DNA from: Octopus vulgaris
Lineage: Eukaryota
Assembly: GCA_951406725.2 (NCBI GenBank)
Contig: OX597817.1
Coordinates: 174,220,001 to 174,284,000 of the forward strand
DNA: 64,000 nt
Reading direction: 5' to 3'
The position numbers were made by a program, and so were the translations under genes. Shown one piece after another: positions 25,706 through 56,976 of this stretch. The notes beneath the pieces are model-generated. The model saw only the letters and a program-made list of their open reading frames with translations. It searched no databases and had not been told where the DNA came from. How positions within the stretch are numbered: the first letter of the stretch is position 1; the number at the start of each line of letters is the position of its first letter.

Positions 25706-27234
25706 TGAAGGCACATGGCCCAGTGGTTAGAGCGTTGAGCTTACGACCATGAAGTTGTAAGTTCGATTCCCAGACTGGGCTGCATGTTGTGTTTCATGTT
25801 GCTCCAGTTAACTCAGCTGTAGAAATGAGTTGCGATATCACAGGTGCCAAGCTGCATCGGCCCCTTTGCCTTTCCCTTGGATAACATCAGCGGTGTGGAG
25901 AGGGGAGGCTGGTATGCATGGGCGACTGCTGGTCTTCCACAAACAACCTTGCCTGGACTTGTGCCTCAGAGGGTAACTTTCTAGGTGCAATCCCATGGTC
26001 ATTCATGACCAAAGGGGGTCTCCTCTTCCTCATATATATAAACACACACGGATATGATGGGCTTATTTCAGTTTCCATCTACCAAATCCACTTACAAGGC
26101 TTTGGTTGGCCTGAGGCTATAGTAGAAGACACTTGCCCAAGGTGTTATGAAGTGGGACTGAACTCGGAACCATTGTGCCTTTATAGAGTGATATTCAAAT
26201 TTGTTTAATAATGTTAAGTAAACCTACTTCTTTGCACACTGAACACAATTCTTGTGTTCTTAACTACTGCATATATTCTCAGCTAAGCTAGTTGCAATCT
26301 TATTTTATTTAAATGTTTCTTTTCCTGCACTTCATATATTCAAACTAATGTTTGTATTTAGAAAGCTATATGATCTGTAGTAGTAGTAGTATCATCATCG
26401 TTTTAATATCTACTTTTCCATGCTTCCATTGGTCAGACAGAATTTGTTGAGGCAGATTTTCTATGGCCAGATGCCCTTCCTGTCACAAACCCTCACCTGT
26501 TTCCATGGAAGGTAATATTTCTCTATGGCCAGACATGTTTTCACAGAAGGCTGGTTGTGAACACTTATTTGATGGTGACACTTGTTTACTGCCATCACTC
26601 AATGTCAAAACAAGGAAGCAAATGTACATGCACTCATATATTAATATAAATGTGGCAGGCTTCTATCAGCTTTCCTCTATCAAATCCACTCAGAAGGCTT
26701 TGGTTCATCCAGGGCTATAATAGAAGACACTTTCCCAAGTTGCCATGCAGTAAGATTGAACCTGAAACCATGCAGTTGGGAAGTGAATTTCTTAACCTCA
26801 CAATCATGCCTACAACTAGCAATGAATATTAAAGTATAACAAGGTTGTGAGGTGGCCGAATTGTTAGCACATCGGGTAAAATGCTTAGTGGTATTTCCTC
26901 TGACTTTTTGTTCTGAGATGAAATTCCACTGAGGTCAACTTTGCCTTTCATTCCTTTGAAGTTGATAAAATAAGTACCAGTTGAACACTGAGGGTCAATG
27001 TAATTGACTTATCCCCTCCCTAAAATTTGCTGGCCTTGTGCCAAAATTTGAAACCAATATTAAAGTATAATACATACACACACTCACATATATATGCATG
27101 TAAGCCATCTAAGAGTTCATAAGTCAGGAAAAAATGCATTTGTATATTGTCAGTTGAGTGGGCATATTAATTGAAATGTACAGTATTATATATCCATCAT
27201 GTCCGATCTCTAGAGAGTAGTTATCATATTTCAT

Positions 27235-27342
27235 TCCATAAGAGCTACCTCTGATGAGTGCAGGGCTACATAATCAGGTTGTTACCTAACACTCCGTTGA
27301 ACCTCTAGTGCGAAACTGATTGGTAAGATCAGCCCTAATGGA
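27235..27342 (+). ncRNA. Type I hammerhead ribozyme motif (partly degenerate) inside a fold-back element at about 27165-27370
   Basis: CTGATGA 27251-27257, GAAAC 27312-27316, GTA 27323-27325. Imperfect stem I TCCATAAGAGCTACCT / AGATCAGCCCTAATGGA; imperfect stem II GTGCAGGG / CTCTAGTGC. Confidence 0.7.
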
Positions 27343-27364
27343 TATATAATACTATACACTTTGA

Positions 27365-27398
<34 letters not shown>

Positions 27399-29941
27399 AA
27401 TTGCAACAATGAGATATAAATAACAGTCTCTAATAATATTAGAGGTTCAGTAAACCTTTATTTTAACTAATCATGATTTTGCTTGAATAACACATAGAAC
27501 TGCTAAGCTAGTGATAGTCTGTATATTCAGCAATCAGGTTGGAAATGTAAATTGAACACTATATTTTTCTGTGCTCTGAAAAGTAGGATTCCTCTCTGAC
27601 TAAGGGACACATCTCAAATATTGTTTTCCACTTTTCATGTTCCTCCAATATGCAGTTCTCATAATTTGTATTCCCTATTTTACTAGACACATTTAAACTA
27701 AACAAATGACTTTAATAGTGAGAGCCTTTCATAGCTTAACGTCAGCATTATAGAAAACAGATAACCTTGATAGACAGATGCATTTCCTTCAGTTTCATAA
27801 CCACCAGTCTATGTTATATTCAAGGTGAATATTTCTGAGAGAAAGAAATCGAAATAGCTGCATGAGCACCTCTTCATCATATATATTTGTTTTGCAATCC
27901 GTCAGCGTTTCTCTTATTTTTCTTTCCCTCTTTTCATCAGAAACTATCTAATAATTTTCCAAGCCTTCATTTTTGGCTCCAATGCTCTGTGTGTGTGTAT
28001 GTGTGTGTGCATGTGTGAGTATGTGTGAATGTGTGTGTATGTGTGTGCATGTGTGAGTATGTGTGTATGTGTGTGTATGTGTGTGCATGTTTGTGTTTGT
28101 GTGTTGAAGTGATTTGATATATCAGACTCTTGTCAGGTCACTGGTAACCACTGTGCTTACTCTTTACCCCGAACACTCTAATAAAGTGAGCTTTATTAAA
28201 GTGTTCAGCTTGGCTGTTCTTACAGTGAATGCCAGCCCCACCCTTTTATCTTTCCTCTCTCTCTTATTATCAATTCTCTTTTCTGATTTCCATTTAGGTG
28301 AGATTTGCTTTAATAGCAACTGCATTCCATCAGGCAAAAATGAATGAAAGAAAAAGCAATTTTGTCTGATGGGCGTTTTTAGTCAGTTTAATAATGACTC
28401 TGATATTAATGTTTTCATATACTGGTTAGAACAGTTGGGTATATGATCTCAAAAGCACTGCCAAATCCGATATGCAATGCAGAAAAATTTGAAGTGTCTG
28501 TTATGATGACTCTTAGCCATCATTAAGCAATCACGCTACTTATTTTAGCTAATTAATCTCAGAATGGTTAGTTAAAAGCAAGAAGAATTGGGCAAGTGGC
28601 AGAGATATTGTTATGCAGGTACCTTGATGTATGTTGAGAGTAGGAATGAAGTAGAAAGGTGAATTGACCATACCGAAGTTGTGTAAAGATAATTGTTATT
28701 GTGTTGGTTTGGTGGCTATTCTGAGAGTATAGAGTATAGACATACTGTTAACAGAGGAATAGAAACATAATGTGGTTTGGTTGAACAATAGAATGTTGAC
28801 TGTTGCTAGGGAACGGAAGATTAAGAAGAAGTCATAGTGAAAGTTAACAGTAAATGATAGAGTTACTTTTTTAATCATTGTATGGAATTATAATGTTCAT
28901 AATAGGAAAAACCAAGAAGGAAGGATGTATTGGTGTTTGGAAGCCATTGTCATGGTATAATAAATGAAGTTAGCTTTAGGGATTCCTTGATATGGGTGAC
29001 TGACTATCTATAATACAAGCTTCATAAAGCTAGGTTACTTATCGTAGGATCGAGATACAAATTGATTTTGCTTATAGAGATAAGATGGAAAAGAAGAGAA
29101 CTAATAGTTAAAAAACAAAACAAAAAGATGAATGCCTGTTCCTAAAGGGCATCGATTGTAATATTGCTATAATACAGTAAAGAATATACCTAGAGCTTCT
29201 TTTTAGCCAGCATTATGTGTTATAATGATTATAAGCCATTTGTCTGTACAATATGTCCATGGACACAAAAAGAGGGAACAATTGTATGCAAGTTTCAGTT
29301 CTTGTTGAAATCATCATCAGCAACTGTGTACTTTTTTCACCTGTCCATTAACACACTGTTTATAAACCCACTAATATTAGGTACCCATAAGGCAGCGGAG
29401 CTGGCAGAATCATTAGCATGCTGAGCAAAATGCTTTGTGGCATTTTGTCTGTCTTTATGTTCTGTGTTCAAATTCTGCCGAGGTCAACACTTTTCTAAGC
29501 AGGTAGGCTGAACATTAAATTATAGGTGTGTCTATAATAAATTATATCATTGCTATAATAAATTATAGACCATATCTATAGATTTTTTTAGCCAATAATG
29601 CTTGTTCTTACTGTTATAAACAAGTCATCTGTACAATATATCTGTGAACAGAAAAAGAGGGCATAATTGTATGCATGTTTCGATTCTTATTGGAACCATC
29701 ATCAGCTACTGGGAATCTTCTTCTGTCCTACTTTAGGAGTGTGTTCCAATTAGTATTAGGGGCCAAAGTAGACTAGATAGATCAATTTGAATATTAAGCA
29801 CTTTTCTAGACAGCTAGCTCAAACATTAAATTACTGTAAGCTACTGATCTCTCTTTGTGGATGGAACAGCCAAATAGTGAGCTTCATCTCATTTCTATCT
29901 TTTTATCTTTTTACTTGTTTCAGTCATTGAACTGAAAGAAA

Positions 29942-29980
<39 letters not shown>

Positions 29981-30265
29981 TTGTATTGACATTGTGTGTT
30001 AATCATGAATGAGCAACACAGTTATGTAAGTGTTAACTGCTGATGCCAATTTTCCATGATAACATAACAAGCCTTTGGGAAGTTAAACCTTGCTTGGAAA
30101 CAAGTGAGGGGTTGGTGACAGGAAGGGCACCCGGCTGTACTAAAATGTCTCTATTACATAGACATAAACCATGCTAGCATAAAAATGAACGAATGAATAC
30201 CTTTGTGTATGTGTGTGTATATATATGTATAAATGTGTGTATATATATATAGAGAGAGAAAGAGA

Positions 30266-30565
30266 GCAATAAGAAAATGGAGGGGATCAATAGGTTGTTC
30301 ATCAACTTTTAGACAATTTATATTCATGTATATTATATTGTATTAATTATTGTATCTTTATATATTAATATATCTTATATATTATATGTAAAGCAGAATA
30401 TGTTATACATGTATGTATATTCTTGAAATTGTCAGTTTAGTAAATATATAAATAAGTTAACATAATATAATGTCTAAAAGTTGATGAACCACCTATTGAT
30501 CCCCTCCATTTTCTTGTTGCTATATAAATTAATGGTAAAATATCTCTTTACCTTCACCCATTTAG
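30266..30565 (+). mobile_element. Fold-back element (about 50-bp arms at 30266-30316 and 30471-30520, plus tail), PLE-pLTR-like
   Basis: Near-perfect inverted arms, AT-rich centre, next to a TA/GA microsatellite. Confidence 0.6.
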
Positions 30566-31325
30566 TACACTAGGTACTATCCCCAAATGGCCCTGTCAAC
30601 AACATTGTTCCACCACCACATTACCTTGGGTCAAGAGGAGACTTTGCACCATCCACAAATCTGGTCAATGGCCCTCAGCAGATTGTCTTGTAGAAAACTC
30701 CAGTTGTCTTCCACATCACGTGATGTTACATCCCTTTCTATTTTGTCAAAAATTTTTTCTGGTGAGGATGTAGTCAATTTGGCTAGTGTGTCTACCAGAT
30801 TGGTAGGTGACTAGGTGACTGGCAGGTTTCTGGAGATGGTATTGCAAACCATAAGATCATTTGCATCACAGAACTCCAGTAGTCTGGTTCCTTCCTCATT
30901 GTGGGAGCCAAAACCATAGCCTCCATGTATCTCATGGAAACCCCTGCATGTTGTACAACATGTCCATTGAAGTCACCAACCACAAAGAGAAGGTCCCTGT
31001 CATTCGTAACAAAGTAGTCTGCAAGAGGGTGTCATAAAATCGGTCTTTCTATCCATCAGGTAGCCCAAGCAGGGGCCGAGATAACGGTTACTAACCCATG
31101 ATGGAGCACTAATCCAATCTTAAGTATTCTATCGCATACTCTGACTACCTCGATTACCTTATCAACCCATTTCTCCACAAGAAGAATACCCACGCCCCGA
31201 CCCTGTCAGTGTTCCCTGCCCAGAAAATCTTGTACCTGTGTTCTTTGCCTGTGAGGAACCTAGCGGAACCTCTTCTCCATCTTACTTCTTGGATGCAGCA
31301 CAAATCTATATGTCTCCGTTCAGGC
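30566..31325 (-). mobile_element. RTE LINE 5' fragment encoding a decayed APE endonuclease domain
   Basis: IDLCCIQEVRW and VGDFNGHV motifs in minus-strand ORFs, with frameshifts. Confidence 0.9.
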
Positions 31326-31391
31326 ATGTAAAAAAAAAAGAAATCAACCTTTGAATGTTGGGCCTCACAGAGGCAAAATGGTTGAGTACCC

Positions 31392-31617
31392 TTCAATCGA
31401 AGGAGAGGAGCTTTCTCCATCCGGGTTGCGGATCCGTGGAACAAGCTGCCAGACGAGATGGTGAAGATGCTGACGACCGCTTTGTTCAAAGCCTCCCTGG
31501 ACCTCAAGTGGCCTGAACTCTTTACATGAACACCACCCTGTACTTAACTCCATGTCCCCCTACATGGCCTTGCTATTTGCTTTTGAGCCAAATTAACTAA
31601 CTAACTAACTAACTAAA
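31392..31617 (+). mobile_element. CR1-like LINE 3' end with (CTAA)n tail, inserted in an RTE 3' UTR (about 31325-32060)
   Basis: Translates RRGAFSIRVADPWNKLPDEMVKMLTTALFKASLD (FSxRVxxxWNxLP...FKxxLD). Confidence 0.85.
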
Positions 31618-32122
31618 CGTTGGACCTGATGGAGGCATAATGATAGTTCCTTTCGAGGATTGGGCTTCATGGAGGCAAAGTAACTGAGTTCCTTTCAAGT
31701 GTTGGGCCTCACTGAGGCGAGGTGGCTGAGTTCCTTTCGAGTTGACCTCATGGAGGCGAGGTGGCTGAGTTCCTTTTAAGTGTTGGACCTCACAGAAGCA
31801 ATGACCAAGACTTTGGCATTATGTTGTGCTTGAGAAGAAGACCCATCAAGCCAAGCAAAATTACAATTATGGCAGATATCAGTGGTATGTAAAAGCACCC
31901 ATTACACTCTTGGAGTGATTGGCATTAGGAAGGGCATCTAGCCATAGGAAACCATACCAAATCAGACTGGATCCTGGCGCAGCCTTCCAGCGTGCCTGTC
32001 TGGTCCAACCGTCCAACCCATGCCAGCATGGACAATGGACATTAAATGATGATGTGATGATGTGTGTGTGTATGTGTGTGTGTTTATATATGTATATATA
32101 ATATAATATATATATATATATA

Positions 32123-33391
32123 ACTAGGAAGATGGTTTTTGTATGTGGCAGATGCTCGAGAGCATTAACCTCTGAAAATCTGCAGAAAACAACTTCCGTC
32201 ACTTTCCAGGGGGAAAAACTAGAAGTAGTTGATAGCTTCTGTTATCTTGGTGACCAAGTCAGTAGTGGGGGTGGGTGTGCTGAAAGTGTAATGGCTAGAG
32301 TAAGAATAGCCTGGGCAAAGTTTAGGGAGCTCTTACCTCTGTTGGTGACTAAAGGCCTCTCGCTCAGAGTAAAAGGCAGACTGTATGATGCATGTGTACG
32401 AACAGCCATGCTACATGGCAGTGAAACATGGGCAGTGACTGCTGAGGACATGCGTAAGCTCGCGAGAAATGAAGCTAGTATGCTCCGTTGGATGTGTAAT
32501 GTCAGTGTTCATAGTCGACAGAGTGTAAGTACCTTGAGAGAAAAGTTGGACCTAAGAGGCATCAGATGTTGTGTGCAAGAGAGACGATTGCGCTGGTATG
32601 GTCATGTGAGAATGGATGAAGATAGGTGTGTGAAAAAGTGCCACACCCTGGCAGTTGAGGGGACCTGTGGAAGAGGTAGACCCAGGAAAACCTGGGTCGA
32701 GGTGGTGAAGCGCGACCTTCGAACTCTAAGTCTCACCAAGGAAATGACCAGAGATCGAGACCTATGGAAGTATGCTGTGCGTGAGAAGACCCGGCAAGAC
32801 CAGTGAGAACAATCAAAATCAAATCATATATCAGAAAGCAGGGGTTAAGTGATCCATCCGTTCGTGTCCGCTGTCAGCCTCGTCTGGCACCCATGCCGGT
32901 GATACGTAAAAGCACCATTCGCTCGTGGCCGTTTGCCAGCTCTGCCTGGCCCCCGTGTCGGTGGCACGTAAAAGCACCATCCGTTCGTGTTCATTGCCAG
33001 CCTCGGCTGGCCCCCGTGCCGGTGACACGTAAAAGCACCGTCCGTTCGTGGCCGTTTGCCAGCTCTGTCTGGCCCCGTGTCAGTGGCACGTAAAAGCACC
33101 ATCCGTTCGTGTCCGTTGCCAGCATCGCCTGGCCCCGTGCCGGTGACACGTAAAAGCACCATCCGTTCGTGGCCGTTCGCCAGCTCTGTCTGGCACCTGT
33201 GCAGGTGGCACGTAAAAAACACCCACTACACTCGCGGAGTGGTTGGCGTTAGGAAGGGCATCCAGCCGTAGAAACACTGCCAGATCTGACTGGGCCTGAC
33301 GAAGCCTTCCAGCTTCACAGACCCCAGTTGACCCGTCCAACCCATGCTAGCATGGAAAGCGGACGCTAAATGATGATGATGATGATGATGA
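32123..33391 (+). mobile_element. 5'-truncated RTE LINE (ORF 32132-32806) with a multi-unit 3' UTR and (GAT)n tail
   Basis: The protein is nearly identical to the C-terminal part of 9570-10565. About six 65-bp UTR units at 32850-33220. Confidence 0.95.
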
Positions 33392-33401
33392 TATATATAC
33401 A

Positions 33402-33820
33402 TAAAATAATTTACTTTGCCACATACTGAAATTTTTAGAAATAGCAGCCCCAAAAAATGAAATGTTGAGCTGACGAAAGAAATGTTGAGTTTTAATTCGG
33501 CTAGTCTAGAAACATGAACGTTCTCAAATAATCTTTGTACGTGTGATATTTTGTTGTTTTCCCTCCATATCTACGTGAATTATTTTTGAGTAAGCACTTT
33601 CAGGGAGATTCTTCTTAAAGTAGTAGAAATGGCTAAAGAAAATTTTTTTTGGCTGCTATTTCTAAAAATTTCAGTATGTGGCAAAGTAAATTATTTTACT
33701 GAGCCCTTAATTATATAAAGAAATATTTTGAATACGCCTTGAATGGTCCTTTTACATACTGAACACTACTTGGGGAAATTAATTAATAACTAATTGATTT
33801 TACCCTTAATTATTGATATA
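33402..33820 (+). mobile_element. Fold-back PLE-pLTR-like element with perfect 48-bp inverted arms and an internal hammerhead
   Basis: 33402-33449 is the exact reverse complement of 33651-33698. The tail is homologous to the reverse complement of 39120-39235. Flanked by TA repeats. Confidence 0.75.
33465..33527 (+). ncRNA. Type I hammerhead ribozyme motif
   Basis: Stem I TTGAG/CTCAA; CTGACGA 33470-33476; imperfect stem II; GAAAC 33509-33513; GTT cleavage triplet 33520-33522. Confidence 0.7.
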
Positions 33821-33824
33821 TATA

Positions 33825-34005
33825 TCATCATCATCATCATCATCATCGTTTAACGTCCGTTTTCCGTGCTAGCACGGGTTGGACGGTTTGACCGGGGTCT
33901 AGGAAGCCAGGGGCTGCACCAGGCTCCAGTCTGATCTGGCAGTGTTTCTACAGCTGGATGCCCTTCCTAACGCCAACCACTCCGCGAGTGTAGTGGGTGC
34001 TTTTT
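33825..34005 (-). mobile_element. RTE-type 3' tail (SINE or short LINE end), inverted relative to its neighbours
   Basis: Reverse complement of 33215-33391. Confidence 0.85.
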
Positions 34006-34119
34006 ATATAGATATATACACCCACACACACACACGCATGGCTGATGCCAGCGCTGCCTGTCTGGCACCTGTGCTGATGGCATGTAAAATGCACCATTTG
34101 AGCATGGCCATTGCCAGTG

Positions 34120-37100
34120 CCGCCTGACTGGCACCCATGCCTGTGTCATGTAAAAAGCACCATTCGAGTGTGACTGATGCCAGTGCCGCCTGACTGGCAC
34201 CCATGCCTGTGTCATGTAAAAAGCACCATTCGAGTGTGACCGATGCCACTGCTGCCTGACTGGCACCCATGTGCCTGTGTCATGTAAAAGCACCATTCGA
34301 GTGTGACTGATGCCACTGCGCCTGACTGCCAGTGCTGCCTGACTGGCACCCATGCCTGTGTCATGTAAAAAGCACCATTCGAGTGTGACCGATGCCACTG
34401 CTGCCTGACTGGCACCCATGCCTGTGTCATGTAAAAAGCACCATTCGAGTGTGACCACTGATGCCACTGCCTGCCTGACTGGCACCCATGCCTGTGTCAT
34501 GTAAAAAGCACCATTCGAGTGTGACCGATGCCACTGCCGCCTGACTGGCACCCATGCCTGTGTCATGTAAAAAGCACCATTCGAGTGTGACCGATGCCAC
34601 TGCTGCCTGACTGGCACCCATGCCTGTGTCATGTAAAAAGCACCATTCGAGTGTGACCGATGCCACTGCCGCCTGCCTGACTGGCACCCATGCCTGTGTC
34701 ATGTAAAAAGCACCATTCGAGTGTGACCGATGCCACTGCTGCCTGACTGGCACCCATGCCTGTGTCATGTAAAAAGCACCATTCGAGTGTGACCGATGCC
34801 ACTGCTGCCTGACTGGCACCCATGCCTGTGTCATGTAAAAAGCACCATTCGAGTGTGACCGATGCCACTGCTGCCTGACTGGCACCCATGCCTGTGTCAT
34901 GTAAAAAGCACCATTCGAGTGTGACCGATGCCACTGCTGCCTGACTGGCACCCATGCCTGTGTCATGTAAAAAGCACCATTCGAGTGTGACCGATGCCAC
35001 TGCTGCCTGACTGGCACCCATGCCTGTGTCATGTAAAAAGCACCATTCGAGTGTGACCGATGCCACTGCTGCCTGACTGGCACCCATGCCTGTGTCATGT
35101 AAAAAGCACCATTCGAGTGTGACCGATGCCACTGCTGCCTGACTGGCACCCATGCCTGTGTCATGTAAAAAGCACCATTCGAGTGTGACTGATGCCACTG
35201 CCGCCTGACTGGCACCCATGCCTGTGTCATGTAAAAAGCACCATTCGAGTGTGACCGATGCCACTGCTGCCTGACTGGCACCCATGCCTGTGTCATGTAA
35301 AAAGCACCATTCGAGTGTGACCGATGCCACTGCCGCCTGACTGGCACCCATGCCTGTGTCATGTAAAAAGCACCATTCGAGTGTGACCGATGCCACTGCT
35401 GCCTGACTGGCACCCATGCCTGTGTCATGTAAAAAGCACCATTCGAGTGTGACCGATGCCACTGCCGCCTGACTGGCACCCATGCCTGTGTCATGTAAAA
35501 AGCACCATTCGAGTGTGACCGATGCCACTGCTGCCTGACTGGCACCCATGCCTGTGTCATGTAAAAAGCACCATTCGAGTGTGACCGATGCCAGTGCCGC
35601 CTGACTGGCACCCATGCCTGTGTCATGTAAAAAGCACCATTCGAGTGTGACCGATGCCACTGCTGCCTGACTGGCACCCATGCCTGTGTCATGTAAAAAG
35701 CACCATTCGAGTGTGACTGATGCCACTGCTGCCTGACTGGCACCCATGCCTGTGTCATGTAAAAAGCACCATTCGAGTGTGACCGATGCCACTGCCGCCT
35801 GACTGGCACCCATGCCTGTGTCATGTAAAAAGCACCATTCGAGTGTGACCGATGCCACTGCTGCCTGACTGGCACCCATGCCTGTGTCATGTAAAAAGCA
35901 CCATTCGAGTGTGACTGATGCCACTGCTGCCTGACTGGCACCCATGCCTGTGTCATGTAAAAAGCACCATTCGAGTGTGACCGATATGATGCCACTGCTG
36001 CCTGACTGGCACCCATGCCTGTGTCATGTAAAAAGCACCATTCGAGTGTGACTGATGCCAGTTCCGCCTGACTGGCACCCATGCCTGTGTCATGTAAAAA
36101 GCACCATTCGAGTGTGACCGATGCCACTGCTGCCTGACTGGCACCCATGCCTGTGTCATGTAAAAAGCACCATTCGAGTGTGACCGATGCCAGTGCCGCC
36201 TGACTGGCACCCATGCCTGTGTCATGTAAAAAGCACCATTCGAGTGTGACCGATGCCACTGCTGCCTGACTGGCACCCATGCCTGTGTCATGTAAAAAGC
36301 ACCATTCGAGTGTGACTGATGCCAGTGCCGCCTGACTGGCACCCATGCCTGTGTCATGTAAAAAGCACCATTCGAGTGTGACCGATGCCACTGCTGCCTG
36401 ACTGGCACCCATGCCTGTGTCATGTAAAAAGCACCATTCGAGTGTGACCGATGCCAGTGCCGCCTGACTGGCACCCATGCCTGTGTCATGTAAAAAGCAC
36501 CATTCGAGTGTGACCGATGCCACTGCTGCCTGACTGGCACCCATGCCTGTGTCATGTAAAAAGCACTATTCGAGTGTGACTGATGCCACTGCTGCCTGAT
36601 TGGCACCCATGCCTGTGGCATGTAAAAAGCACCATTCGAGTGTGACCGATGCCACTGCTGCCTGACTGGCACCCATGCCTGTGGCATGTAAAAAGCACCA
36701 TTCGAGTGTGACTGATGCCACTGCTGCCTGACTGGCACCCATGCCTGTGTCATGTAAAAAGCACCATTCGAGTGTGACCGATGCCACTGCTGCCTGACTG
36801 GCACCCATGCCTGTGGCATGTAAAAAGCACCATTCGAGTGTGACCGATGCCACTGCGGCCTGACTGGCACCCATGCCTGTGTCATGTAAAAAGCACCATT
36901 CGAGTGTGACTGATGCCACTGCTGCCTGACTGGCACCCATGCCTGTGTCATGTAAAAAGCACCATTCGAGTGTGACCGATGCCACTGCTGCCTGACTGGC
37001 ACCCATGCCTGTGGCATGTAAAAAGCACCATTCGAGTGTGACTGATGCCACTGCTGCCTGACTGGCACCCATGCCTGTGTCATGTAAAAAGCACCATTCG

Positions 37101-37990
37101 AGTGTGACCGATGCCACTGCGGCCTGACTGGCACCCATGCCTGTGTCATGTAAAAGCACCATTCGAGTGTGACTGATGCCACTGCTGCCTGACTGGCACC
37201 CATGCCTGTGTCATGTAAAAAGCACCATTCGAGTGTGACTGATGCCACTGCCGCCTGACTGGCACCCATGCCTGTGGCATGTAAAAAGCACCATTCGAGT
37301 GTGACTGATGCCACTGCTGCCTGACAGGCACCCATGCCTGTGTCATGTAAAAAGCACCATTCGAGTGTGACCGATGCCACTGCTGCCTGACTGGCACCCA
37401 TGCCTGTGTCATGTAAAAAGCACCATTCGAGTGTGACCGATGCCACTGCTGCCTGACTGGCACCCATGCCTGTGTCATGTAAAAAGCACCATTCGAGTGT
37501 GACTGATGCCACTGCCGCCTGACTGGCACCCATGCCTGTGTCATGTAAAAAGCACCATTCGAGTGTGACCGATGCCACTGCTGCCTGACTGGCACCCATG
37601 CCTGTGTCATGTAAAAAGCACCATTCGAGTGTGACTGATGCCACTGCTGCCTGACTGGCACCCATGCCTGTGTCATGTAAAAAGCACCATTCGAGTGTGA
37701 CTGATGCCACTGCTGCCTGACTGGCACCCATGCCTGTGTCATGTAAAAAGCACCATTCGAGTGTGACTGATGCCACTGCCGCCTGACTGGCACCCATGCC
37801 TGTGGCATGTAAAAGCACCATTCGAGTGTGACTGATGCCACTGCTGCCTGACTGGCACCCATGCCTGTGTCATGTAAAAAGCACCATTCGAGTGTGACCG
37901 ATGCCAGTGCCGCCTGACTGGCACCCATGCCTGTGGCATGTAAAAAGCACCAATCGAGTGTGACCGATGCCACTGCTGCCTGACTGGCTC
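34120..37990 (+). repeat. Tandem array of a 66-bp unit, about 58 copies, inside an RTE-type 3' UTR that resumes at 38000-38180
   Basis: Unit GCACCCATGCCTGTGTCATGTAAAAAGCACCATTCGAGTGTGACCGATGCCACTGCTGCCTGACTG, homologous to the UTR units at 10740-10960 and 32850-33220. Confidence 0.97.
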
Positions 37991-38180
37991 ATGTGCCAGT
38001 GGCATGTAAAAGCACCCACTTCATTGTCAGAGTGGTTGGCATTTGGAAGGGCATTCAGCTGTAGAAACCTTGCCAAATCAGATTGGAGCCTGGTGCAACC
38101 TCCTGGCTTGCCAGTTCTCAGTCAAACCATCTAACCCATGCTAGCATGGAAAGCAGACGTTAAACGACAACAACGATGAT

Positions 38181-38640: not shown

Positions 38641-39117
38641 TTGACTTAGAGTTTTGCAGTGACATCTAATTCACTTAGCTAAAAGAGTTTTTTTTTTTTC
38701 AAAAATGTGTTTCTTTTTTCTTGGGTGTTTTACTTTGTTGTATATATTTTTTTTATTTTCTTTTGCAATACCTTTCCATCATCTTCCATAAAACAGTTAG
38801 GATGTAGCTTCGATAAAGTAGCACAGATAACAACTCAAGGTCTTTCGTATTTCCTGAGCTACTGAAAGCTTACATCTGCTTGTCAGTTTGTTTAACCCCA
38901 CCCCATCCCTACCCCTCGAAAAGCAAACAGGTACAAACATGGTTGTGTTGTTACGAAGTTTGCTTTGCAATCACATAATTTAGGTTTAGTCCCACTGCAT
39001 GGCACCTTGGGCATTTGTCTTCTACTATAGCCTCGGGCTGACCAAAGCCTTGCGAGTGGATTTGGTAGACGGAAACTGAAAGAAGCCCATCGTATATAAG
39101 TATATATATATATATAT

Positions 39118-39528
39118 AATAACAAAGGGTGAAATTAATTAATTAAGAAGTAATCAGTAATTTCACCAAGTAGAATTCGGCATGAAAAGGACCGTTTCAT
39201 GGTAAGTTTAAGTAATACTATATAATTAGGGTTCAGCAACGATTTGCTTCACCACATACCGAAGTTTAGAAATAGCAGTCAAAAAATCTTAGCTATTCCT
39301 TCTACTTTAAAGGGAGTTCCCAGGAAAACCAAAGCACTTGAAAACAAACCACGCAGGCAAAAGGGATTTTCGTCATTTTTTCCCTTGTACCTGCGTGGTT
39401 TGTTTTCAAGTGCTTTGGTTTTTCTGGGAACTCCCTTTAAAGTAGAAGGAATAGCTAAGATTTTTTGACTGCTATTTCTAAACTTCGGTATATGGTGAAG
39501 CAAATCGTTGCTGAACCCTAATTATATA

Positions 39529-39531
<3 letters not shown>
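39118..39531 (-). mobile_element. Fold-back element with arms of about 145 bp, inserted in the (TA)n of a family-B SINE (about 38930-39790)
   Basis: About 39215-39358 versus 39389-39531 are near-perfect inverted repeats. Same family as 33402-33820. The SINE sequence resumes after the TA tract. Confidence 0.8.
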
Positions 39532-39574
<43 letters not shown>

Positions 39575-40029
39575 GTGTGTATATGTTTGTGTGTCTGTGT
39601 TTGTTCCCCCAACATCACTTGACAACCAATGGTGGTGTGTTTACGTCCCTGTCACTTAGCAGTTCGGCAAAAGAGGCCAATAGAATAAGTACTAGGCTTA
39701 CAAAGAATAAGTCCTGGGGTCGATTTGCTCGACTAAAGGCGGTGCTCCAGCATGGTCGCAATCAACTGACTGAAACAAGTAAAGAGTATAGTCTCAGGCT
39801 GACCAAATCCTTGTGAGTGAGTTTGATGGAAGAAAACTATATGAAAGCCTAATGTGTGTGTGTGTGTTTGTGTGCGTGTGTGTGTGTATGTGTCACTATT
39901 TTGTTTTATTTCAAGACTTCTTGCCAATAGAGAAAGAGCTGGTTTCTAACCTAAATCCAAGCCTCCTTCATTGGAATTTCACCAACATCAGTGGGGTATT
40001 TTTGTATGTATATATATGTATGTATATAC

Positions 40030-40449
40030 TCTTTATTCTTTTACTCTTTTACTTGTTTCAGTCATTTGACTGTGGCCATACTGGAGCACTGCCTTTAGTC
40101 GAGCAAATCGACCCCGGGACTTATTCTTTGTAAGCCGAGTACTTATTCTATCAGTCTCTTTTGCTGAATCGCTAAGATACGGGGACATAAACACATCAGC
40201 ATCAGTTGTCAAGTGATGTTGGGGGGACAAACACTGATACACAAACATATACACACATACACACATATATATATATGTATATACACAATGGGCTTCTTTC
40301 AGTTTCCGTCTACCAAATCCACTCACAAGGCTTTGGTCGGCCTGAGGCTATAGTAGAAAACACTTGCCCAAGGTGCCACGCAGTGGGACTGAACCGGGAA
40401 CCATATGGTTTGTAAGCAAGCTTCTTACCACACAGCCACTCCTACGCCT
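40030..40449 (-). mobile_element. Full-length family-B SINE
   Basis: Reverse complement of 50852-51260. Confidence 0.8.
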
Positions 40450-44059: not shown

Positions 44060-44975
44060 AAACCCTCAAGAATTGTGTCAATGCTGCGTCATCAACTAGC
44101 TTGTTTCTTGACTTCTTTAATGCTCTTTTAAATGTATCTGTGAACCTTTCCACTTACCTGTTTGATCTTGGGTGATATTGAGGAGTAGTGATATGTTCAA
44201 TTGAGTACATCTTGCAAAAATTCTTAAATTCATTTGGTGTGAATAGTGTACCATTATCAGAGACTATGGTTTCCGGGACACCATACCTAGCAAAAAGTTT
44301 GTGTAGAAATTCCACTGTTACCGTTGATGTTGGTTTTCTACATTTACATATTTCTGGCCATTTAGTAAAGTTATCTACCACAATTAGATAATATGAACAG
44401 TTTAACGGTCCTGTGAAGTCTATGTGTAGTCTGGACCATGGAATATTGGTCTTGGGCCAAGGCTGAAATTTTATAGGTCATGATTTCGCTGCAAGAGCAC
44501 AACTTCTGCAGGATTTTACCAACTTCTCAATATCTAGATCCATTTTTGGCCAGTAAACATAACTCCACATAAATGACTTCATCCTAGAAATTCCTGGATG
44601 TCCAGTGTGGAATTCCTTTAGTGAGGTAGGTATTATGACCCTCTGTGCATACATAAGCACGTTATCACATATTGAATACAAATTTGAAACTGTTATGTCC
44701 AACTACACATATTTTTTTATTTGTTTCAGCTGATCTCACTATTTTTTTTTTATTTTTATGATAAACTCATCCGTCTCTGCCTTAATTTTTATTTCCTCCA
44801 ATGTCACAGGCAATTCGTGCACAACATTGCACAACATATTTTTTATTTCATTTTCGACTTTCAACACTGCTATCTTTATGTCTTCTAGCGGTTCACTGTA
44901 TTTTGGTATTAATCTTGACAAACCATCTGCATGTCCCCATTTTTTCGATGGCAAATACTCCATTTTGAAGTCAAA
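44060..44975 (-). mobile_element. Gypsy/Ty3 LTR-retrotransposon pol relic (RNase H end, HHCC zinc finger, integrase core)
   Basis: GHADGLSRL; HTGHPG...YVYWP...CRSC; VDNFTKWPE...YGVPETIVSDNG...YHPRSN; ERFTDTFKRAL. Several stops and frameshifts. Confidence 0.93.
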
Positions 44976-45969: not shown

Positions 45970-46018
45970 ATATATGTGTATATATATATATATATATATG
46001 TATATATGTGTATATATA

Positions 46019-46062
<44 letters not shown>

Positions 46063-46114
46063 TATATACATACATACATACACACTCACACTTGTGTGTA
46101 TGTGTATGTACATG

Positions 46115-46175
<61 letters not shown>

Positions 46176-48954: not shown

Positions 48955-49003
<49 letters not shown>

Positions 49004-49335: not shown

Positions 49336-49371
<36 letters not shown>

Positions 49372-49397
49372 TGTTTGGTCTTTTTCCCTTGTTTCAG

Positions 49398-49447
49398 ATT
49401 GTTTTTGGTAAAGTTAATGCTGAAAAAGAAGAGGCTCTCAGATCTGA
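49398..49447 (+). CDS. Internal 50-bp exon of the PDI-like gene: IVFGKVNAEKEEALRS(E/D)
   Basis: Long pyrimidine tract + CAG acceptor, GTAAGT donor. Phase 0 start matches the previous exon. The peptide matches PDI VVIAKVDAxxExxLxx. Confidence 0.88.
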
Positions 49448-49474
49448 GTAAGTATGATACATATCTAATTCCTA

Positions 49475-49508
<34 letters not shown>

Positions 49509-50065
49509 CTTCACTCAAATGATATATATTACATTTATTTATTTGACAGTTGCTCAACGTAACTGTAATATGATTTTGAAAGGAATACACAGAATAGGAA
49601 TCTATGCATATAAAACATAAATTTAAAAGCTAGATTATGCTTTTGTATGTATTTAATTATTGGCAACTATGGCTCTTTCAAAACATAGCACATGCAGGAA
49701 ATAATGTCTCGTACTTTGAATGGAAGAACGGCCATGATTGTGTAAAGAATGTTTTCCATATTATCAACGTATACTCTGTATTACTAATGACAACATGGAC
49801 CAATGAGTATAAAAAAAAAAAAGAGAAATAATGCCAACAATCATGATAATGACATTTCTTTTAACTGCACTCTATCACCCATTTCAAGGTTGTTAGAGAG
49901 AAAAACAAGATTATTGACAACATGTTGTTGCATTTGTAATACAAATTTGCTTTAACAATTTTGTGGTAAATTTTATTGCCATAGTAATATATCAAAATCA
50001 CTGCTTTTGTTTCATATGTACATGTTTGTGTCTATGTATGTACACACATACACACGCACACACAC

Positions 50066-50096
<31 letters not shown>

Positions 50097-50565
50097 TCTT
50101 ATCTCTTACTTGTTTCAGTGATTGGACTAGGGTCTTGCTGGGGGCACCACCTTGAAGTGTTTAGTTAAACTAATTGACCCCACTGATTATTTTTTTAAAT
50201 CCTGGTACATATTCTGATGGTCTCTTTTGCCAAACGGTGACATAAACAAACCAACATCAGTTGTCATGTAGTTGTGTGGAGCAAACTTACACACACACAC
50301 ACACGTACATACACACACACGTACACACACACACGTACACACACACACACGTACACACACACACACACACAGACATGATGACCTTTCAAACTATTTCCAT
50401 GTACCATATTCACTCACAAGCCATTGGCCAGCCTGGAATTATGTTAGAAGACGTTCTCCCTAGGTACCATGCAGTGGGACTGAACCCAAAGCCATGTAGT
50501 TGCAAAGCTGGCTTCTCAATCACATAAGCCTATATATGCATGTGTGTGTGTGTGTGTGTGAGAGA

Positions 50566-50832
50566 GTAAATCATAAATCCTAAAGAGAAGCAAGCTCTAA
50601 GTTATAGAGCAGTAAAGTAATTAGATAAATATAGCTATGGCTCGTCTATGGGGTTACCCAGGGTTTCATGTCCATAAAGCATTTAGCTTTAGAGTGTCTC
50701 TTCAGACCCTAATGGCTGATGGCTTCACTTTGAAGAGTGATTATAGGCCACCAGCCATTAGAGCCTCAAGAGACGCTGTAAAGTCAAGTGCTTTATGGAC
50801 ATGAAGCCCTGGGTAATCCCACAACTATATCT
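50566..50832 (-). mobile_element. Fold-back element made of two inverted hammerhead-containing arms plus a tail
   Basis: Arms about 50647-50724 and 50746-50823. The tail GAGAAGCAAGCTCTAAGTTATAGAGCAGT is shared with 56701 and 41165. Confidence 0.8.
50649..50711 (-). ncRNA. Type I hammerhead ribozyme with intact core
   Basis: The minus strand reads TAGGGT-CTGAAGA-(stem II including TAAAGC/GCTTTA)-GAAAC-CCTGG-GTA-ACCCCA. Confidence 0.8.
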
Positions 50833-50851
50833 TATATATATATATAAAATA

Positions 50852-51260
50852 GGCGCAGGAGTGGCTGTGTGGTAAGTAGCTTGCTAACCAACCACATGGT
50901 TCCGGGTTAAGTCCCACTGTGTGGCATCTTGGGCAAGTGTCTTCTGCTATAGCCCCGGGTCGACCAATGCCTTTGAGTGGATTTGGTAGACGGAAACTGA
51001 AAGAAGCCCATCATATATATGTATATATATATATGCGTGAGTGTGTGTGTCTGTGTTTGTCCCCCTAGCATTGCTTGACTACCGATGCTGGTGTGTTTAT
51101 GTCCCTGTCACTTAGCGGTTCGGCAAAAGAGACCGATAGAATAAGTACTGGGCTTACAAAGAATAAGTCCCAGGGTCGATTTGCTTGACTAAAAGGCGGT
51201 GCTCCAGCATGGTCGCAGTCAAATGACTGAAACAAGTAAAAGAGTAAAAGAGTAAAAGAG
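50852..51260 (+). mobile_element. Full-length family-B tRNA-type SINE; another copy at about 59203-59601
   Basis: GGCGCAGGAGTGGCTGTGTGGTAAG...GGTTCCGGGTT head, internal TA/TG tract, (GTAAAAGA)n tail. Confidence 0.85.
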
Positions 51261-52626
51261 TATACATACATACACACACACACACACACGTATTTAATCA
51301 AATTCTTCATTATTTTCAAAATTAATTGAAACAAAGGCAGCGTATTTCAATATAATTATAGCAATAACAGGTTAATTAAAAATTCTGGTTATGACTTTGT
51401 GTGAGTAAGTTTGCTGTTTAGTAATTTCTATAAAGGGTTTCTTATTGATGACCTAGTGGAATGTTAAGGTTTTATGTTTGTTGGTTACGATGGTGGGTGG
51501 TGGTCTATTTTTCCTCTTATAATTTGATAGAAATATATATCATATACTCTATCAACCATCTGTATAGTGAAGAATGGAAATCACTATCCTTAGGCTTTTT
51601 GGTTTGGCATCTCTCATATCACCATTTGTAATGTAGCATTTATTATGCTACAACAAATTTAATGGATTTCTTCTGTACATTTTATGCCAAGATCTTATTC
51701 TTAAGGAAATGTCTGTGAAAAATATTTTCACATCCAGTGTGTGGTCTCTCTCTCTGCTGTCTTCAATTGTGTTTCAGGAATGGGATTTTTTTTCTTTCTA
51801 CATTAACTGTAAGACTTGTTTTCTTACTCTTCCAAGAATGATATTGTCTTCTCACTTTAGGGCTTGTCTATTGTACAGGTAGAACTAATGGTAAATGAAA
51901 TCCTTCCTTATATATATTATTCCTACATTCTGTATTGGCTTCAACAGTCTGGAAGGCAAAGTTTTTCTTTCAGGGATTTCGATCTCATAACAGACATAAA
52001 TGACTTTGTATGGGTTTTTAACAATAAGGAATTGAAATGTTGGATGAATGAGAAAAGTAATCTTCACTTTAAGCTCTTCATTTGTTTTATTGCTAATAAC
52101 CTATGTGAAACACAACTGTTCCAAGGAAAGAAATGGACATTGAAAAGTACTATTCATAACACAAGAATATGTGTTCTAGAAGAAACTAGGAATATGCTTG
52201 TCAAGATGGTATGGTGAGTGAGAGAATGTTAGTGTTGGTAGCTCTGTTTTCAACCCGGCATTTCAACAGTCATAACTGTGGAGACTATCAATACTATCAC
52301 ATTTTACTTCTCACACCACTAAATTTCCAATACAGTCTACCAGTCAAACTCTGCTCTTTTGTTTTGAAATTGGGTCTTTTTTATTGAGCTACAGGACAAA
52401 TTCTGACTAGATAGATCTTTGACAATGTCTTCACTCAAAAATCTGGAACATGTTTCTTATAATTTGATTGGTCAGCTTTTTGCTGACCACACTAGTAAAT
52501 CCAGAAGATCAGCTTTGTTTATTTACACACACCAACTTGCAAATGAAACAGTCAGGTTTCAAACTGAAGTAGAAAATTGCTACAAATTTAAACTTCATAA
52601 TAAATATAAAAGAGTAAATTCATCAA

Positions 52627-52664
<38 letters not shown>

Positions 52665-53266
52665 CTGCATGCAAACACATACAAGGTGTATGAGATACTG
52701 ATTTACATACAGTAAAGCATCAGTAAGGTTATGGTTTAAGCAGATATTCCTAATGGCCCAAGGGCTTTTCCTACCTTTATATCCTTAACTACTTTATCTA
52801 TTAAACTGCCATCAACTATGCACATAAGCTTAAAGGTACACATGTAAAATTCCAAAGTAGCAAGATACTAACTTAACCAAAATTTTAAAAAATGTTATAT
52901 ATGTATAATATGTAAAGGTAAGATCCAAGGATCAAAGTGTAGGAAGTTAGTAATCTTCAAGCAGTCCATAGAAGGTGTAAAAAAACAACTTCAGGAACAA
53001 TAGCGGTTTATTAATGTAGAAGGATGTAAATTTTTTCCATATTGAGGTTTGATAAATTTACGGTTAGGGTTGCTGTGTATGCAAATAGAAATGCGAAATC
53101 AAAAATCTGCAAGTCAACATAGGAACCCTTGACAACAATGTCAACTTCATTTGATTAAGGTATCTTTGGTATGATAAGTAACTGGTGGATTATCCCTCGT
53201 TTGGGCTAATACTACTTCCAAGCTTCTGCTAGCTATGAAACATATAATAATCATAATATTATAAAA

Positions 53267-53497
53267 GGCGGTGAGCTGGCATAAACGTTAGCGCCCCGGG
53301 CAAAATGCTTAGCAGTATTTCGTCTGCTGTTACATTCTGAGTTCAAATTCCGCCGAGGTCGACTTTGCCTTTCATCCTTTCGGGGTCGATAAATTAAGTA
53401 CTAGTTACGCACTGGGGTCAATGTGATTGACTTAATCCCTTTGTCTGTCCTTGTTTGTCCCCTCTATGTTTAGCCCCTTGTGGGCAATAAGCAAATA
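53267..53497 (+). mobile_element. Full-length monomeric family-A SINE
   Basis: GGCGGTGAGCTGGCA head through GCCCCTTGTGGGCAATAA. Confidence 0.85.
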
Positions 53498-53504
53498 AAA
53501 TATA

Positions 53505-53845
53505 ATAATGATAATGATAATGAAATTATTGTGTATTGTGCTCAGGTGCACTACAACTCAACAAAAGTGCATGTACAGTGCATAGAATTATGTACAAAAA
53601 TCAGGAAAGTGAATAGTGTATGAATCATGATATACATGTGTGCATGCGCATGGAGGGGGTGGATATCAGGTGTGGTGTTGGCGAATTTCAGGAATCATGG
53701 AGGTTTTAAAGGATGCACTGTTTCGGCAACTAACAACTGATGCAGGTAGTTTGTTCCATGCTTCAGCAACTCTGAGTGTGAGAAAATGTTTCCAAAAGTC
53801 ATGGGAGTTGTGTTGTTTTCTGACTTTGTAGGCATGGCCACATGT
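53505..53845 (-). mobile_element. CR1-like LINE 3' end with (CATTAT)n tail
   Basis: The minus strand reads YKVRKQHNSHDFWKHFLTLRVAEAWNKLPASVVSCRNSASFKTSM. Confidence 0.8.
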
Positions 53846-53902
53846 GGAAGCTAGACTTTATCTACTCCATTCCCTAATTTTCAGGATATATTTATATATA
53901 TA

Positions 53903-54205
53903 CTTTTATTACAGCTGAAAAATCTTCACAAACTGTTAATCAGAGTTTCATGTTACAGTTTGTTGGCCAGTTGTGATAATATTATCATATGGTCACAACA
54001 GTCACACGATCAGTTATGATAATAGGATCACAACTGTAATATGATCAGTTGTGATAATATGATCATCATAACCGGCTGTGAAACTCTGAGTAACAGTCTA
54101 TGAAGATTTTTCTGGCTTTAATAAAAGCATATTACTCTACTTTTGGTATTCAAGTACTATTTTTTACCACATTGGTTTGTATTTATATGTTTACTCGTGT
54201 TTTTA
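53903..54205 (+). mobile_element. Fold-back element between TA tracts, retaining only the 3' half of a hammerhead
   Basis: Arms 53903-53950 and 54079-54127; GAAAC-TCTGA-GTA-ACAGT at 54080-54097. The centre is short degenerate repeats. Confidence 0.65.
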
Positions 54206-56679
54206 TATATATATATATACACATACATACATATATATATATGATGATAGGTTTATTTTTTACTGTCTAGTTGGTAATCTTGATTACAGCTTGATACAGA
54301 CACTTTCAGAATTTCTTCCTTTGTCAAGACTGTTGCTTGTTTCATGTTTGTGAATGTTGAAGGCATTAAATAAGAAGTAGAATTTAAAACCACTCAATAC
54401 ATTGCTAGAAACATTATCTATGGAGTGTGTTACTCTACACTATTTTATAGTAATTTCCTTATCTCTGATGATAACGAAAATAAACAGATTAAGTTCACTC
54501 CTATTTTGAGGGATTTTGGCAGCATTATATGCCTTTTACTTAAAGAGGAGAAGGAGGAGGAGGGATTTGTGATTTTTATATCTGATATCATAATTCACTT
54601 ACCATATTGAGGATTAACTCAAGTACCTAGAATTTTCTGAACCCTGCTATGTACATACATCCGATCAATATATCCACTTATTTTAAAATGTTTATTTTAA
54701 TGAAGAACATATTAAATCTGAATTTAAACATAAAAGGGTAAAAAATCAATTTCTGCAGCAAAAATATATAGCATTATGGACACAAGAAGAAATCAAACAG
54801 AGCTGAATATAAAAATTATTGAGTTCTAGTAAAATACTAAGTAAAATATTTTTCTAAAATTAGTTCTTAATGAAGTCTAAAGTTTGTTATTTGCCAAAAT
54901 CATTAGACTCTGATAAAATTAGAATTATTTATTTGCTTATTTATCAAATGATTCTTCTGATATTATTTTCATTCTGTTGATGATATATACACATATATTC
55001 ACACGTATATTTGACCATACACACATACACACACAATATGACCGTAAGCACCTGTTCTTGTTGTATCTTAAATAGATAAAAACAAATATTTGCATTGCCA
55101 TTGTAATACAAACATTTCATATTTAAGTAGGTAAATAAATCTAATTCTTGCTTTCTTAAGATCGCAGAAAGTCTTAACCTTATACACACACACACACACA
55201 CGCGCGCACACACACACACGCACACACACACACACACATACAATGAAAATGTAAGCTCAATGCACTTCAAAGAAATAAAAACAGACTCACACATGCACAT
55301 GTACATACAAATATATGAGTGTGTCTGTGTTTGTGTGTGTGTGTATACACACACACACATATGTATATGGTCATTTACCTGGCGTGGGTGCATGTGTGTG
55401 TGTATATATTGTGTGTGTATCTATCTATCTATCTATCTATCTATATATATATATATATATATAATAACTGAGCATCAATCTTAATAACTATTCACTGTGC
55501 ATGTCTAACTGATTCTTGTTTTTTCCTGATTTTATTTTTGATTTGCCTATATATGTGTAGCTAAGTATACACACACACACACACACATATATATATAAAC
55601 ATATGTACATAAATGTACACTTCCACATCCTTCCTTTCATCCATCCACCCATCCATCCATCAATCTATATATGGTTGTTTACCAGGAGTGTGTGTGTGTG
55701 TGTGTGTGTACAATATACTTCACAGATAATCACCTACACTTGAGAGCCACTAGTCTTAACAATATTTGTCAATATTTCTCCTGGACTCTCCACCTAAGTA
55801 AAATTGTCAAGTTAAGCCTGGACTTCTTCAAAGCAAACATACACTCTAGCCACAGGTTGTTGTAACTAACTTTCTCTTAGCTACAACAGATGTAACCCAC
55901 ACTGGAACAGCAAACACTTCTGTACTTAAGATCAAGTTCTTACTACACCTGTATCTAATGTACTTGACCAGATTCTGGAAAACTGTTGTTTGCACTTGGT
56001 GTATTCACCAACGTTACTTAACACCTACTCTGAGGACTGACTTGTCTCTGCTGCTGTTACTACGACCATCAACATCATTACCACCATCACCACCACCACC
56101 CACCACCACCACCACCACCACCACCGCCGCCGCCGCTACCATTATCATCATCATCATCACCATCACCATCACTACCACCACTACAACCACTACAGCAGCA
56201 GTACCACCACCACTGCCACTACCACGACCACTATCACCATTTTTCTTTTTTCCTTTAATGGCCATTTCCCCCCCCCCCACACCCTGTGCTGGTATAGGTT
56301 GGATGAGTCATCTCCATCTCAATGCATTGCCACTTGTTATATTCCATTGTGATCCCCTTCATGAGGTCCAGCATCCTGGCATCACACTTCACCATTTATG
56401 TCTGCAAATGTTGATGATGGTAATGCTGATGATGATGGTGCAATGATGGTGGTGGTGGAGGTAGTAGTAGTAGTAGTACTAGTAGTACATTCCGTGTGAG
56501 CTGGGTTGGTTTGACTGGACCAATCCATTTTCCCTCAGATATTCACTGTTCCAAAACCACAAATACATATACACAGTTCATGTCAGATTTAACCCTTTAG
56601 CATTTAAACCAGCCATATCTGGCCTAAATATTCTACCTGTTTTATGTCTGAACCAGCCAGACCTCCCCCCACTCCCATA

Positions 56680-56976
56680 ATATTTAGAAAAACTTAAATC
56701 CAGAGAAGAAGCACACTCTAAGAAGTAGAGCAGTCTATATTTTTTTCCTGGTGAAGGCCTGATTATGGGGTTGCTCTGGGTTTTCTGTCCGTAAAGGGTT
56801 TGACTTTATGGTGCATCTTCAGATCCCAAGACCTGTTGGCCTATGATCTCTTTTAAAATTTTAAAGAGGTCATTGGCCAACAGGTCTTGGGGTCTGAAGA
56901 TATGCCATAAAGTTAAACCCTTTATGAATGGGATACCCAGGGTAACCCCATAAACTGGCCTTCGCCAGGGAAAATA
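56680..56976 (-). mobile_element. Fold-back element of the same family as 50566-50832, with degenerate hammerheads in both arms
   Basis: Arms about 56740-56853 and 56862-56976. The + arm reads TGGGGT-CTGAAGA(56894)-...-GGATAC-CCAGG-GTA-ACCCCA. Confidence 0.8.

Follow-up and report, generated by a model that had tools for sequence, protein, structure and literature searches.

The described systems closest to the elements reported here are Penelope-like elements (PLEs) and retrozymes. PLE insertions have a published layout consisting of an inverted, 5'-truncated copy and a tail at one end (PMC8557442, Fig. 2 legend; PMC3846280). Hydra-clade PLEs, marked by DKT in place of DKG and by a CxCx5C linker, have already been reported in octopus, in which Hydra-1_Obim has a hammerhead ribozyme and a (TA)n target (Craig et al. 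2021, PMC8557442 and its supplement). The Poseidon PAc system cuts and extends both strands of an AT-rich target in vitro, the tail being the stretch between two internal reverse transcriptase (RT) start sites, and does not need the hammerhead for insertion (Frangieh et al. 2024, PMC11167929). Minimal hammerheads of PLEs have a short palindromic stem III and occur as thousands of solo copies and as opposite-strand pairs 100-700 bp apart (Cervera and de la Pena 2014, PMC4209133). Animal retrozymes lacking long terminal repeats (LTRs) are head-to-tail repeats without an open reading frame (ORF), with a type I hammerhead per unit, in genomes that contain PLEs (Cervera and de la Pena 2020, PMC7229834; Li, Clavereau and Pollet 2026, 10.64898/2026.07.22.740005). 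We have investigated seven small fold-back elements in a 64,000-nt stretch of the 2.8-Gb Octopus vulgaris genome (OX597817.1, 174,220,001-174,284,000; the window), together with the families to which they belong, interval and families having been picked post hoc. An initial annotation had described them as a multi-family class of non-autonomous PLE- or retrozyme-like elements sharing one design.

Our results make it very probable that all seven elements arose as 5'-truncated head-to-head insertions, the likely agents being PLE enzymes that combine RT and a GIY-YIG endonuclease (EN) and act at TA repeats. Three are the 3' ends of decayed coding Hydra-type elements, two derive from ORF-less hammerhead repeats of 566 and 604 nt which likely use borrowed enzymes of this kind, and the last two belong to families in which no ORF was found. 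In each family the 5' ends are variable, whereas the 3' ends are fixed at two positions about 58-178 nt from one another, referred to here as long and short. Relative to C3 of the hammerhead, the bimodal 3' ends lie at +85/+141 in family A, +121/+180 in B, +250/+345 in C, +340/+519 in D, +70/+134 in E and +271/+371 in F. The published PLE layout of 5' truncation, inverted truncated copy and one-sided tail is present in all six families, and the shared design is thus the published one and not a new class; the tails are longer than the 30-40 bp described for PLEs in PMC8557442.

Long ends are nearly always paired with short ones. Solo copies prevail, using long and short ends alike as termini, and 95 head-to-head pairs were found in 310 locus entries, a merged and de-duplicated count which takes in the window copies and one duplicated pair. 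The pairs comprise 62 long+short, two long+long and one short+short, the remaining 30 having an off-class end, so that 62 of the 65 classifiable pairs are long+short. Independent choice of start site would be expected to give like-ended arms in about half of the pairs; three of 65 are observed. The bias towards unlike ends is likely a trace of the way in which the element's DNA copy is made. At the tips of the 62 long+short pairs, the arms are symmetric (within 8 nt) in 33, the long-ended arm reaches further in 16 and the short-ended arm in 10, and the arms do not overlap in three; tips pile up just 5' of the hammerhead in families A (-36 to -38) and E (-5). In two family C loci (L064 and L071) the long-ended arm halts at +249, the short start site, as if hitting the other priming site on one RNA.

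Most likely, such insertions arise when the endonuclease nicks the two strands of a TA tract and the nicks prime cDNA synthesis from different internal start sites on the RNA. Both cDNAs would stop early and their tips would be joined, giving a hairpin in which the tail is the segment separating the start sites. It is likely for the source RNA that the hammerhead is of use, either as a dimer or with protein help. The long+short rule is common to coding Hydra elements and ORF-less units, and we tentatively suggest, as a possibility somewhat short of an even chance, that both nicked strands are primed on one RNA by a dimer of the PLE enzyme, each subunit taking one start site, and that this dimer also acts in trans on ribozyme circles of 566-604 nt.

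The same tip data bear on self-priming, in which the Penelope origin is kept and a single cDNA, bent back on itself at the tip, is copied without second-strand priming, as has been proposed from junction palindromes in Adineta (PMC3846280). The 33 pairs with tips within 8 nt, and the clustering of tips 5' of the hammerhead in families A and E, are as this route would predict. However, where the short-ended arm reaches further 5' (10/62) or the arms do not overlap (3/62), copying of one arm from the other cannot account for the pair, and these 13 pairs, whose short-ended arm holds sequence absent from the other arm, argue against pure self-priming, as does the use of both 3' ends by solo copies. 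Self-priming may be the source of the symmetric pairs; as the explanation for the hairpins as a whole we regard it as unlikely.

Local inverted repeats are present at all seven sites in the window, element ends being set by alignment to family references. Six families can be distinguished, which form five groups unrelated to one another: A (E5 and E7), B (E1), C/F (E3 and E4), D (E2) and E (E6). The seven positions and roughly five families of the initial annotation are thus confirmed, the first element beginning at 27108, about 57 nt to the left of 27165. E1 (27108-27371, plus strand) consists of an inverted long-ended arm (27108-27209) and a sense unit (27225-27371) which stops at the short 3' end and is followed by (TA)n. 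E2 (30265-30576, plus) has an inverted short-ended arm and a sense arm ending 55 nt into the tail, its hammerhead being lost through 5' truncation. E3 (33402-33818, plus) carries an inverted arm (33402-33456) and a sense unit (33459-33818) reaching the long 3' end. E4 (39116-39532, no strand assigned) lies within a (TA)n tract of short interspersed element (SINE) type and joins a minus-strand long-ended arm (39116-39366) to a plus-strand short-ended arm extending to 39532, the hammerhead again being truncated away. E5 (50565-50824, minus) is a diverged family A member in which the minus-strand arm carries the tail and the plus-strand arm is short and damaged. E6 (53898-54198, plus) has a short-ended minus arm with a decayed core (53966), a rearranged junction and a long-ended plus arm with the 3' half of a core only (54080), and E7 (56683-56974, minus) has a long-ended minus arm (56683-56859) and a short-ended plus arm (56858-56974), the cores of both being damaged (56822, minus; 56894, plus). 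E5 and E7 are 66-67% alike, and E3 and E4 73-77% over part of their length. A TA run adjoins at least one side of six of the seven elements, in agreement with the TA neighbours originally noted; flank repeats at the insertion are TA runs in five and trivial or absent in two. The proposed density of one element per 4 kb holds locally but not beyond, with one further family match in the remaining 114 kb when 144 kb are considered, and about one per 36 kb in the flanks of other loci.

Other fold-backs were also observed in the window. Inverted copies of SINE or long interspersed element ends surround or enclose E3 and E4 (33213-34006 and 39001-40377), forming bigger hairpins outside the PLE hairpins. 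An eighth fold-back at 15834-15990 (78%) carries a hammerhead 3' half on each arm, with a palindromic stem III, and is probably an old PLE stub. A decayed fold-back at 8601-8760 (72%), with (ATTG)n flanks and a core-like remnant, is possibly a still older one.

Families A and B are linked to coding sequence. Copies extend upstream into decayed RT, linker and GIY-YIG, in that order, in L211 and L212 for family A, to which E7 belongs, and in L220, L222, L224 and L229 for family B, to which E1 belongs; RT and EN remnants are also joined to family B in L232. A search with an RT piece returned 212 longer relatives, mostly unnamed (best E 5e-50), and among the 120 of these listed DKT is present in 84, DKG in one, CxCx5C in 98 and an N-terminal RWK motif in 51, the linked A and B copies stopping short of the RWK region. 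DKT was seen in the family B copy L224, and family A copies do not extend to that region. In family B the CxCx5C linker and the CxxC and CxH motifs around conserved E and N residues occur in L222, L224, L229 and L232; in family A, CxxC and CxH occur in L212 and the third linker cysteine is decayed in L211 and L212. A Pfam search of the PLE pieces and of five homologs gave no named domain, and the assignment to PLE RT and EN therefore rests on motifs and homologs. Judged by these motifs, A and B are EN+ PLEs with Hydra-clade features. They share with Hydra-1_Obim the order of RT and C-terminal GIY-YIG, DKT, the linker and the cysteine motifs, as well as a 3' hammerhead, (TA)n targets and the inverted 5'-truncated copy with a one-sided tail (PMC8557442), and the Hydra-1_Obim protein resembles the A and B ORFs when compared by eye. 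The A and B hammerheads differ in sequence from the motif listed for Hydra-1_oBim, and A and B are decayed. Six short motifs of our families were not found in the PMC8557442 supplement by exact search, in which line breaks may hide matches. The link to PLEs drawn in the initial annotation is thus borne out, while the term non-autonomous is wrong for A and B, three of the seven window copies being 5'-truncated ends of coding Hydra-type PLEs with RT and GIY-YIG elsewhere. An initial Neptune label was dropped once Hydra motifs had been counted in the homologs. Family A ORFs contain long (AAC/AGC)-rich low-complexity inserts in the endonuclease region (L211:1200-2050, L212, L213 and L004), recalling N-rich inserts described in Adineta PLEs (PMC3846280).

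Extension to Penelope ORFs, proposed for all families, succeeded for A and B but not for the other four. Families C and F run into their own 3' end, giving head-to-tail periods of 563-567 and 604 nt, respectively (L214, L215 and L216). The unit junction is present in 10/30 C loci and 3/30 F loci, the reference locus being counted in each, and the longest ATG frames in the two units are 39 and 44 codons. As ORF-less repeat units with a hammerhead, C and F are non-autonomous as annotated, and their sequences suggest that they are likely retrozyme-like repeats borrowing PLE enzymes. They resemble animal non-LTR retrozymes in repeat organisation, in the type I hammerhead of each unit and in sharing a genome with PLEs, and differ in unit length, published units being about 170-400 nt (PMC7229834), and in that most C and F copies are scattered, truncated and marked by the two-end footprint of PLEs. 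Assembled contigs of four runs guessed to be RNA cover portions of the C unit, contigs which cannot show ends, strand or circles. Family D, traced more than 1.3 kb upstream without reaching its 5' end, showed no PLE protein match, ORF or head-to-tail junction. No ORF was found in family E copies, which mostly stop at the hammerhead, so that here too the 5' end was not reached. Remnants of PLE ORFs in the neighbourhood of D and E copies (L096, L272 and L310) are not contiguous with these copies, look like nested insertions and were not counted as links. The possibility that D is a hammerhead-less Naiad was dropped, the core lying about 280 nt upstream of the first query, and a low-threshold tRNA scan of D loci gave noise only.

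These units raise the alternative that all seven elements form one non-autonomous retrozyme system replicating through self-cleaved RNA circles. The head-to-tail junctions and short ATG frames of C and F, and the absence of a PLE protein match over more than 1.3 kb in the traced copies of D, are compatible with such a system, but A and B join coding sequence, the copies of D traced lack a head-to-tail junction, the C and F units exceed published retrozyme lengths and read-through of a tandem array would yield identical junctions without a circle. A single retrozyme system is therefore improbable.

All six families carry a type I hammerhead in their longer copies, including D and F, in which it is lost from the window copies. 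At least 961 to at least 2093 candidates per family are present in the genome, first-look counts that are lower bounds, with 40 scored and 30 fetched per query. Intact cores, counted with the base of stem III and at least 2 bp of stem I, occur in 16/30 copies of A, 18/30 of B, 19/30 of C, 15/25 of D and 8/30 of F. Stem sequences are wholly different between families around one common core, N7 is variable in A and B, and stem III is palindromic or near-palindromic, alternating in F between two palindromes (4/8 and 3/8), a compensatory change for the dimer helix. The palindromic stem III, variable N7, abundant solo copies and opposite-strand pairs are shared with the PLE minimal hammerheads (PMC4209133), from which our families differ in the long stem II of B, D and F (54-97 nt), in position 10.1-11.1, which is A-U in D and A/A in C, and in position 4, which is mostly C in family E. 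Candidate numbers fall steeply in the 5' direction, from 1572 to 231 in A, 2093 to 309 in B and 1800 to 993 to 26 in D, as expected for retrotransposition; family E copies mostly end at the front edge of the hammerhead. Non-CpG core positions are kept better than their neighbours in B only (3/270 vs 139/2066, p 3.6e-5), with no difference in A, C and D (p 0.41-0.67). From this pattern, the ribozyme looks to be under selection in the source elements while inserted copies decay. In family E, core position 4 is C in 36 of 64 arms (L121-L150 and L269-L293), and the pattern of CpG decay points to a mainly C4 source. Family E is thus likely a natural high-copy U4C hammerhead, a change which occurs in a viroid and lowers activity in vitro (PMC3088659).

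Within the window, a relaxed descriptor detects exactly three complete type I cores, those annotated at 27251 (plus), 33470 (plus) and 50705 (minus), a number reached in none of 300 dinucleotide shuffles (0.17 +/- 0.40 cores per shuffle). The E1 core (27241-27336, plus; C3 at 27251, GUA site at 27325) has a stem II of 54 nt and a stem I of 2 bp, an internal loop and 5-6 bp. The E3 core (33465-33527, plus; C3 at 33470, GUU site at 33522) has a stem I of 5 bp and a stem III reduced to 2 bp in this copy. The E5 core (50651-50709, minus; C3 at 50705, GUA site at 50655), buried in the hairpin, alone is retained by a stricter descriptor, which misses E3 because of A/A at the base of stem II, a general feature of family C (18/19), and E1 because its proximal stem I is 2 bp. 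An Rfam scan of the window gave 107 matches at E<=5, none of them to a hammerhead family and those to hairpin models low-scoring, so that the cores are recovered by the relaxed descriptor but not by Rfam models. The annotated damaged or half cores at 56894 (GATA instead of GAAA) and 54080 are present, with three more on opposite arms at 56822 (minus), 53966 (minus) and 50765 (plus). An intact core is thus lost or damaged in four of the seven elements, E2 and E4 lacking one because both are truncated downstream of it. A further, old and low-copy hammerhead family, absent from the initial annotation, is seen at 29150-29730 (minus; cores at 29320 and 29705), where a stretch of about 170 nt occurs as two direct copies that share 76% of their sequence and are spaced 386 nt apart by SINE-like DNA; both contain CTGATGA...GAAAC and a decayed stem III; four other genomic matches were found.

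Several observations weigh against the origin of the seven elements by PLE-type head-to-head insertion as proposed above. No enzyme was linked to C/F, D or E, and their mobiliser is therefore deduced from the insertion footprint alone; no intact ORF was found for A or B, every fetched copy being broken. The 33 symmetric pairs are also what self-priming would give, 22 of them belonging to family E and partly picked by a junction-containing query, and post-insertion deletions at hairpin tips could mimic the asymmetric pairs. The D and E queries favoured long-ended central copies, one E query holding a junction. Target-site duplications are unreadable because the flanks are TA runs. The RT start site of Poseidon PAc, a PLE of another clade, did not differ by strand in vitro (PMC11167929), whereas the genomic pairs here nearly always contain one of each. 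Finally, in family A, 94.7% of cells are paired over 18 pairs in 20 copies, yet no pair is altered on both sides.

The window is spanned by a plus-strand gene, a 56-residue exon of which matches Octopus PDI/ERp38-like proteins at 98-100%. Protein matches place exons near 700-880, at 16801-16968 and 17775-17836, upstream of the intron containing E1-E4, and at 49398-49448, between that intron and the next, containing E5-E7; the next matched exon is about 73 kb further, in L324. The intronic position reported initially is thus confirmed, with the proviso that one database prediction instead ends the gene at 54410-54607, placing E7 outside it. On transcription of the introns, the hairpins would be expected to yield double-stranded RNA. 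When the hammerhead fold is forced, the penalty for E1 is 11.7 kcal/mol by itself and rises to 21.0 kcal/mol if the inverted arm is included; the corresponding values are 4.0 and 6.6 kcal/mol for E3, and the antisense E5 gives 56.0 kcal/mol in context. The differences between these values matter more than their absolute size. In the 27251 core, the 3' strand of stem I is taken up in pairing with the inverted arm of E1 (27108-27209). The suggestion of self-cleavage sites in the host pre-mRNA therefore stands insofar as two intact cores (27251 and 33470) lie on the gene strand, but both are predicted to fold poorly and 50705 is antisense; cleavage of the host pre-mRNA by E1 or E3 is thus weakly supported, and PLE hammerheads cleave weakly alone or need protein (PMC4209133, PMC11167929).

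That the host keeps the hammerheads or hairpins to cut or mark the PDI-like pre-mRNA would accord with the intronic position of all seven elements, with two intact cores on the gene strand and with the formation of double-stranded RNA in any orientation. Such a use is very improbable, as four of the seven lack an intact core and a fifth is antisense, the hammerhead fold lies 21.0 (E1) and 6.6 (E3) kcal/mol above the free fold in context, core positions in A, C and D decay like their neighbours and PLE hammerheads have little activity on their own. The copies in the introns are likely neutral and in decay. The elements are short, ORF-less, TA-flanked and have inverted arms, like miniature inverted-repeat transposable elements (MITEs) with the terminal inverted repeats of DNA transposons, an origin that can practically be dismissed, since neither fixed terminal repeats nor a fixed length was found, inverted arms occur in only 95 pairs of 310 entries with inner junctions varying by hundreds of bases, the tail is on one arm and two families join reverse transcriptase.

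As a kind, insertions of this type are ordinary, hammerhead PLE stubs having been described in many animals and Hydra PLEs in octopus. The long+short rule over six families bears on how PLEs make tandem and inverted insertions and predicts an outcome for the existing in vitro PLE system, and the PLE footprint on the ORF-less C and F units supports PLE mobilisation of retrozymes. If dimer priming, acting in trans on circles, is true, it would mean that the mobilisation of retrozymes by PLEs has left a direct trace in the genome, and would supply a rule governing PLE inversions, and family E would add a high-copy natural U4C hammerhead. In practice, PLE stubs can pass for MITEs and are overlooked by Rfam. 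These families were not found in the literature searched; further supplements, and Repbase or Dfam, may already contain them. An Octopus vulgaris repeat paper lists Penelope families, its main text containing neither 'hammerhead' nor 'ribozyme' (PMC13282606), and PMC8557442 alone turned up on retrozymes in cephalopods.

Other features of the window are a near-homogeneous tandem array of 56 copies of a 66-nt unit at 34327-38016 (96% matches), an LTR-retrotransposon integrase remnant at 44157-44702 (minus; rve E 3e-14, Integrase_H2C2 E 3e-14), a 1.3-kb array of an 11-12-nt unit at 57682-58953 and a (CTT)n tract of 770 nt at 20163-20934.

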